The notes under the pieces were generated by a model. That model searched no databases. It was not told where the DNA came from and was given only the letters and a program-made list of their open reading frames with translations. From Escherichia coli (GTDB lineage: Bacteria > Pseudomonadota > Gammaproteobacteria > Enterobacterales > Enterobacteriaceae), in assembly GCF_003334255.1 (NCBI RefSeq), contig NZ_QOWU01000031.1: 58,190 nucleotides of DNA, one strand, 5' to 3'. Shown here piece by piece: positions 36,254 through 37,137 of this stretch. The first letter of the stretch is position 1, and every line of letters begins with the position of its first letter. A program made the translations under genes and the position numbers.

Positions 36254-36330
36254 GCGCCCTTAGCTCAGTTGGATAGAGCAACGACCTTCTAAGTCGTGGG
36301 CCGCAGGTTCGAATCCTGCAGGGCGCGCCA
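36254..36330 (+). tRNA. argU: tRNA-Arg (anticodon UCU), 77 nt with encoded CCA
   Basis: Cloverleaf-compatible sequence GCGCCCTTAGCTCAGTTGGATAGAGCAACGACCTTCTAAGTCGTGGGCCGCAGGTTCGAATCCTGCAGGGCGCGCCA. Anticodon loop CUUCUAA gives UCU; T-loop GGTTCGAATCC. Confidence 0.95.
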
Positions 36331-36375
36331 TTTCTTCCTCATTTATGCCCGTCTTATCCGTTTCCGCTTTGCCCT

Positions 36376-37137
36376 TCACCACATCACTTTTTGTCGCTGT
36401 TTGGCGAGATAATTCAACGGTGTCAGGCCGTAAAACGCCTTAAAAACAGAGATAAAGTACGACGTGCTGCTATAGCCACATAATTGCGCCACCTGAGTGA
36501 TATTTTTGTTATCCATCAATAACATCTGTACGGCGTAACGCATACGACACTCTGTGACAATCTGGCTATAGCTGGTATTTTCGTTTTTTAATTTCTTTTT
36601 GAGCAGGCTGGGGCTTAAACATAGCGAACTGGCGACAATTCGCAGATTCCAGTAATGCTGAATATCGCTTTGAATAATGCGGCAGACGCTGTCGCGGACG
36701 CTGCTGCGTAAGATATACATCAGTAGGGCAATAAACCGCGATTGCTCAAGAAAGTTAGACAATACGGTAAAAAGCAATGCGCGCGTCAACTCCGCTTCGC
36801 AGGGTCTGCTGGGTTGCTGCTTGCTGTGGTTGGCGGCTAGCCGGAACACTTCCGGTGTACGGCTATGACAAGCGATAACCGGGGTTGCCAGCCGCGACCA
36901 GGGCTTTACACAGGTTAAGTTCTTATTTAAAAACAACAGATAATCGTTGATGATGTTACGGTTGATGTGGGTGATTAATACGTGATTTAACGTTGAGAGT
37001 TCAATGACGTTATTGTTGCACGCGAAGGCGGCCAGGTAGTTTTTCGGAAGGGTAAACGTAGCATGGTTATTGACGCTTACCTCTACCTCTTTTTCGGTCA
37101 GGATCACCACGCAAGGTTCACTGCTGCTCAATTGCAT
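36376..37137 (-). CDS. envY: AraC/XylS-family transcriptional regulator
   Basis: 253-aa ORF with a C-terminal AraC-type HTH; AT-rich. Position before ybcH-nfrA matches envY. Confidence 0.8.
   Translation of the reverse strand: MQLSSSEPCVVILTEKEVEVSVNNHATFTLPKNYLAAFACNNNVIELSTLNHVLITHINRNIINDYLLFLNKNLTCVKPWSRLATPVIACHSRTPEVFRLAANHSKQQPSRPCEAELTRALLFTVLSNFLEQSRFIALLMYILRSSVRDSVCRIIQSDIQHYWNLRIVASSLCLSPSLLKKKLKNENTSYSQIVTECRMRYAVQMLLMDNKNITQVAQLCGYSSTSYFISVFKAFYGLTPLNYLAKQRQKVMW

Follow-up and report, generated by a model that had tools for sequence, protein, structure and literature searches.

Positions 36254–36376 of the Escherichia coli DNA analysed here are almost certainly an attB, the bacterial attachment site used by temperate lambda-like phages of the DLP12/ev243 group, in its unoccupied form. 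At this site argU is intact, exactly one copy of the attachment (att) core is present, both bacterial arms are in place with nothing between them, and integrase and prophage genes are absent. The window, that is, the whole stretch of 58,190 bases that was analysed, represents 58 kb of the genome, and any ompT gene or argU-type prophage elsewhere in that genome falls outside its scope. The features of the locus, in window coordinates, are as follows.

35379–36011, minus strand: fimZ, from the open reading frame list; collinear with K-12 fimZ (563848–564480) and annotated as fimZ in relatives
36195–36222, plus strand: putative promoter-like site of argU (TTGACT, 16-nt spacer, TATAAT), from a consensus scan with 11 of 12 matches
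36254–36330, plus strand: argU, an intact tRNA-Arg(UCU) gene of 77 nt with CCA encoded (ARAGORN; Rfam RF00005)
36286–36332, plus strand: the single 47-bp att core (O), from alignments to K-12 attL and attR and to the ev243 attP
36333–36375, no strand: bacterial right arm (B'), from the core to the envY stop codon, equal to the sequence right of K-12 attR
36376–37137, minus strand: envY, encoding an AraC-family regulator and convergent with argU (open reading frame list, tblastn, NCBIfam AraC-family matches)
37320–38210, minus strand: ybcH, the next chromosomal gene to the right, as in K-12

The chromosomal neighbour on the left of argU is fimZ, whose longest open reading frame reaches 36074 and whose K-12 gene equivalent measures 633 bp. 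The promoter-like site upstream of argU has the same sequence in K-12, and its function is predicted from that sequence. ARAGORN detected one tRNA gene in the whole 58,190-base window, namely the tRNA-Arg with anticodon TCT at 36254–36330 on the plus strand; the Rfam tRNA model RF00005 scored 72.1 bits at the same position, and every base aligned identically with K-12 argU. When Rfam was searched at a permissive threshold across 34–39 kb, this tRNA was the sole match, a sub-threshold plastid motif on the strand opposite the tRNA being dismissed as chance. The 47-bp core starts in the argU anticodon loop and ends 2 nt beyond the CCA, and alignment of the right arm (36333–36375) revealed neither phage DNA nor a scar. 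EnvY (253 aa) shows 100% protein identity to its K-12 counterpart (253/253 by tblastn), and its stop codon begins at 36376, leaving an argU–envY spacer of 45 nt (36331–36375) in which a promoter/terminator scan found no terminator-like hairpin. A sequence-only reading of the same DNA had given this spacing as 46 bp, which is the coordinate difference and is off by one, an immaterial discrepancy; its principal observation, that envY follows argU without a prophage, ompT or appY, is borne out by the ARAGORN and Rfam identification of the tRNA, by the EnvY open reading frame, and by the lack of any DLP12 DNA or protein match at the locus.

In K-12 MG1655, argU (564723–564799) is followed by the cryptic prophage DLP12 (564755–586056) and then by envY (586147–586908), with the DLP12 genes running from intD through appY to ompT, so that appY and ompT form the right end of the prophage; the sequence-only reading had given this arrangement correctly. 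The integration of DLP12 in argU is credited in PMC10057817 to Lindsey, Mullin & Walker 1989; the DLP12 attR is described as repeating 47 bp of argU (PMC6379469), and the location of ompT inside this lambdoid prophage is stated in the literature, together with the widespread absence of the gene (PMC5723341). The window is collinear with K-12 MG1655 526644–608086 and differs from it in three respects according to the alignment: an 1842-bp deletion in the sfm fimbrial operon of the window, the absence from the window of K-12 564802–586053 (DLP12, 21.25 kb), and the absence of an ERIC element of approximately 130 bp that lies between cusC and cusF in K-12. The window starts inside rhsD (1–900; K-12 526644) and ends 80 bp into an IS186 copy (58111–58190) that follows hokE, where K-12 has IS186B (608007); these repeats at both ends look like what is expected for a whole contig from a short-read assembly.

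Across the missing prophage, the flanking BLAST alignments share only window positions 36283–36332. A three-way alignment resolved the window junction into the left flank of K-12 attL, one 47-bp core, and the right flank of K-12 attR, with the K-12 bacterial arms complete to the base and nothing gained or lost. The core is identical to both K-12 copies (attL and attR) as well as to the core of the ev243 attP, and the att region of the window aligns to the K-12 flanks at one place only. DLP12 interior DNA had no blastn match anywhere in the window, and tblastn returned no protein match in the window for IntD, OmpT, EmrE, RusA, QuuD, RrrD, NohD or YbcK; the AppY match was limited to the C-terminal AraC-type (helix-turn-helix) domain of its paralogue EnvY. 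The K-12 attachment site is built from the same elements as that of the window (the tRNA gene, the 47-bp core, and the bacterial arms left of attL and right of attR), and the two differ in that the K-12 site holds a 21-kb defective prophage whereas the window presents the unoccupied form. Alignment to attL and attR, which had been proposed earlier as a means of telling an empty site from a deletion scar, thus gives one core and no scar, as in an empty site.

The phage partner of this site is found among sequenced phages. A search of a phage collection with the core region matched 19 records, and a search with K-12 ompT matched 13 records at 97.8–99.8% identity; the two sets largely overlap (ev243, 2G7b, Kati, Turner, and the PhiR series), and the hosts named in the records are ECOR13, E. 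coli C, and K-12. The active lambda-like phage ev243 (Nesevirus ev243, NC_049955) carries the following features around its attachment site.

25469–26422: ompT, directly beside the attP core
26842–26891: att core, between ompT and the integrase gene
26905–28068: integrase gene, next to the core

The gene order of ev243 (tail genes, methyltransferase, tfa, hydrolase, ompT, core, integrase, exo, bet, gam, kil) follows that of lambda, ompT being cargo that adjoins attP, and in PhiR68_2 appY lies beside ompT, as it does in K-12. The ev243 attP has the structure P-O-P', in which the P arm corresponds to the left side of K-12 attR and the P' arm to the right side of K-12 attL. The Campbell scheme is complete in this alignment: ev243 supplies the phage partner (P-O-P'), the window supplies the bacterial partner (B-O-B'), and K-12 attL and attR are the two hybrids; ev243 and its relatives share the 47-bp core of the window and carry the phage-side arms of the K-12 hybrids. 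K-12 IntD shares 385 of 387 residues (99%) with the ev243 integrase. Because ompT lies beside attP in ev243 and the integrases are 99% identical, ompT can be regarded as phage cargo, and the window site as one that has merely not been lysogenised. That ompT adjoins the attP of live phages is the more general point, and it is visible in public phage genomes.

Integration follows the same scheme. Phages of this group encode a tyrosine integrase, and the 47-bp core of their attP duplicates the 3' portion of argU; their integration rebuilds the tRNA while placing int beside argU and the right-end cargo (ompT and, in some phages, appY too) beside envY. In the source genome no such phage is integrated at argU, so that argU runs straight into the convergent envY and the argU–envY locus lacks intD, appY and ompT. 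Given the sequence identity with occupied sites, the site would be expected to accept a phage of the DLP12/ev243 type.

Empty sites of this kind are common. Of 5426 complete E. coli genomes, 2449 (45%) had a contiguous match to a 2-kb query covering fimZ, argU, envY and ybcH, a match counting as contiguous when 80% or more of the query fell at a single location; in the others the query was split at the core, reflecting the occupied state, or fimZ and envY were missing. The gene ompT was present in 3095 and absent from 2331 of the same 5426 genomes, and appY-ompT-envY was contiguous in 812. An evenly spaced sample of the records contained 15 chromosomes with the empty site, and in 13 of these the appY-ompT query matched nowhere else. 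The 45-nt argU–envY spacing is identical in NCTC9041, G1/2 and O157:H7 Sakai; in the last of these (NC_002695.2), argU occupies 657183–657259 and envY 657305–658066, in the same arrangement as in the window, and this long-published enterohaemorrhagic (EHEC) reference genome already shows the empty junction. A DLP12-type element has been reported at the locus in 74% of 638 strains (PMC6379469). The empty argU site is accordingly a common and already described presence/absence polymorphism, and an ordinary one.

Two explanations would deny that the window contains a true empty attB. The contig might have been joined across the 47-bp att repeat of a prophage that is really present, a concern raised by the repeats at the window ends (rhsD, IS186), which are typical of short-read contigs, and by the sfm deletion junction of the window, which occurs in one piece in no complete genome of the collection. 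Assemblers, however, break at such repeats rather than skipping 20–50 kb, and the 2449 finished genomes with the same junction include the three nearest relatives of the window; since an identical junction is found in thousands of finished genomes, the closest relatives among them, a mis-join is very unlikely. Scarcely credible at all is an imprecise deletion, in which the prophage or the ompT-appY region would have been removed by an illegitimate or IS-mediated event. Imprecise removal of ompT is known from some laboratory ompT deletions, and this lineage does have deletions associated with IS1 not far away, in the sfm region. At the junction itself, however, residual phage DNA, IS sequence and chromosomal loss are all absent, and the intact tRNA, the single core, and the arms complete to the base exclude such an event. 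The sequence-only reading had left the choice between an ancestral empty site, a clean excision, and a deletion; the empty attB stands, by either precise route, and the imprecise deletion falls away.

Within the preferred reading of an empty attB, the site may never have been occupied, or it may be that of a cured lysogen, which is a sub-case of the same reading: a DLP12-type prophage was once present and was lost precisely, through Int/Xis or through RecA acting on the 47-bp repeats, with attB regenerated. Excision by Int/Xis restores the sequence of a never-occupied site, as does recombination between the 47-bp repeats, and since attB is identical by both routes, the junction cannot decide between them. 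We consider past curing a real possibility, though somewhat short of an even chance. Window positions 34185–39932, which flank the site, match K-12 at 100% identity, with at most three differences over 34.2–44 kb, whereas other blocks of the window are about 2% divergent from K-12; this block therefore goes back to a very recent common ancestor and exists in both occupied and empty states. The K-12 intD is moreover essentially identical to the integrase gene of an active phage, and excision of DLP12 in K-12 has been reported (PMC4632033, citing Hha-induced excision). Against this, the empty site is present in all 30 of the closest haplotypes (the best 30 of the collection, compared over 24.9 kb), and a precise loss, being traceless, yields no positive evidence. 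The internal DLP12 deletion junction of K-12 was found in only 357 genomes, with the sampled records all from K-12 laboratory strains, so that the phage may just as well have been acquired by the K-12 lineage. Near-identical flanks make the gain or loss recent relative to point substitution, and the direction is not fixed by them.

Two sources of polarity were set aside. The terminase/tail-fibre deletion junction, being confined to those 357 genomes with K-12 laboratory strains in the sampled records, provided neither a date for DLP12 nor a polarity, and the SNP profile relative to K-12 was suggestive of a recent gain or loss and gave no direction. A narrower proposal, that the lineage of the window arose recently from a K-12-like DLP12 lysogen through curing in nature, as the identical flanks of approximately 5.7 kb (34185–39932) might suggest, is more tentative still. 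If true, it would mean that even a long-resident defective prophage with cargo beneficial to its host (ompT, appY) still undergoes precise loss in nature.

With regard to phenotype, the source strain is likely to make no OmpT. Neither blastn nor tblastn detected ompT within the 58-kb window. The nearest relatives, G1/2, G6/7 and G8, match the window at 100% identity through the 17.6 kb that lie right of the sfm junction, and none has a chromosomal ompT: a chimeric query combining the sfm junction of the window with K-12 ompT matched one place per chromosome, the number of matching places being read per record and the check covering the chromosomes. As these relatives have no chromosomal ompT, the OmpT-negative prediction of the sequence-only reading is probably right, and it agrees with the genome counts (2331 of 5426 without ompT, compared with 2449 with the empty site). 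It is nevertheless not safe when drawn from the locus alone. The same counts imply at least 118 genomes with both the empty junction and ompT. More distant plasmid-borne omptins would have escaped the searches. In O157:H7, moreover, the argU site is empty and yet ompT is present at icd: strain 2149 (NZ_CP017436.1, 3059546–3068616) has the gene at one end of a prophage, adjacent to a partial icd copy and not beside a second argU, and the neighbouring alpha/beta-hydrolase gene is the same as in ev243. The ompT cargo module therefore travels with lambdoid phages of differing integration specificity (argU, icd). Strain 2149 thus carries ompT elsewhere, whereas the nearest relatives of the window do not.

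The window also resembles the ompT-less "black hole" state of Shigella and enteroinvasive E. coli (EIEC), which lack both DLP12 and ompT (Nakata et al. 1993, as summarised in the review PMC5723341). The same question, whether the prophage was never acquired or was excised, arises in those strains, and the review states that uncertainty (PMC5723341). Unlike them, the window shows no tie to that pathotype; among its closest relatives are isolates from human faeces (G1/2, obtained from a healthy individual), and other near-identical matches come from animals, food, and the environment. In practical terms, the strain is without the DLP12-borne genes at the argU locus (intD, emrE, rusA, the lysis genes, appY, and ompT), its probable lack of the OmpT protease has a bearing on protein-production hosts and on resistance to antimicrobial peptides, and it would offer a free attachment site to ompT-carrying lambda-like phages. 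The result is a matter for annotation and has little importance beyond it.

Several other differences from K-12 and from the relatives were recorded. The sfm deletion, with its junction at window position 31316, takes out sfmA and sfmC together with the 5' end of sfmD (1842 bp, K-12 557950–559791), leaving a 5'-truncated sfmD open reading frame at 31419–33830. In G1/2, G6/7 and G8, IS1A is located at exactly the same left breakpoint and eight more bases (CCTTTTTA) are kept on the right, while the junction of the window has neither IS1 nor these 8 bp. IS1 occurs in the folD-sfm interval of many other strains, and this interval looks like an IS1 hot spot; imprecise loss of IS1 is one possible origin of the IS-free allele of the window. 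K-12 carries the ERIC/IRU element of approximately 130 bp (containing CACCCCAGTCACTTACTTATGTAAGCTCCTGGGGATTCAC) at the cusC 3' end, ahead of cusF, corresponding to window positions 47205–47213; the window and NCTC9041 are without this element, and in both of them cusC has two additional codons (459 aa versus 457 aa). Finally, divergence from K-12 is mosaic along the window, with 0–6 differences per 2 kb over most of 1–20, 34–44 and 52–58 kb, an outlier bin of 17 differences at 8–10 kb, and 24–47 differences per 2 kb (approximately 2%) at 20–34 and 44–52 kb, a pattern that recombination patches usually leave in a phylogroup-A-like background.
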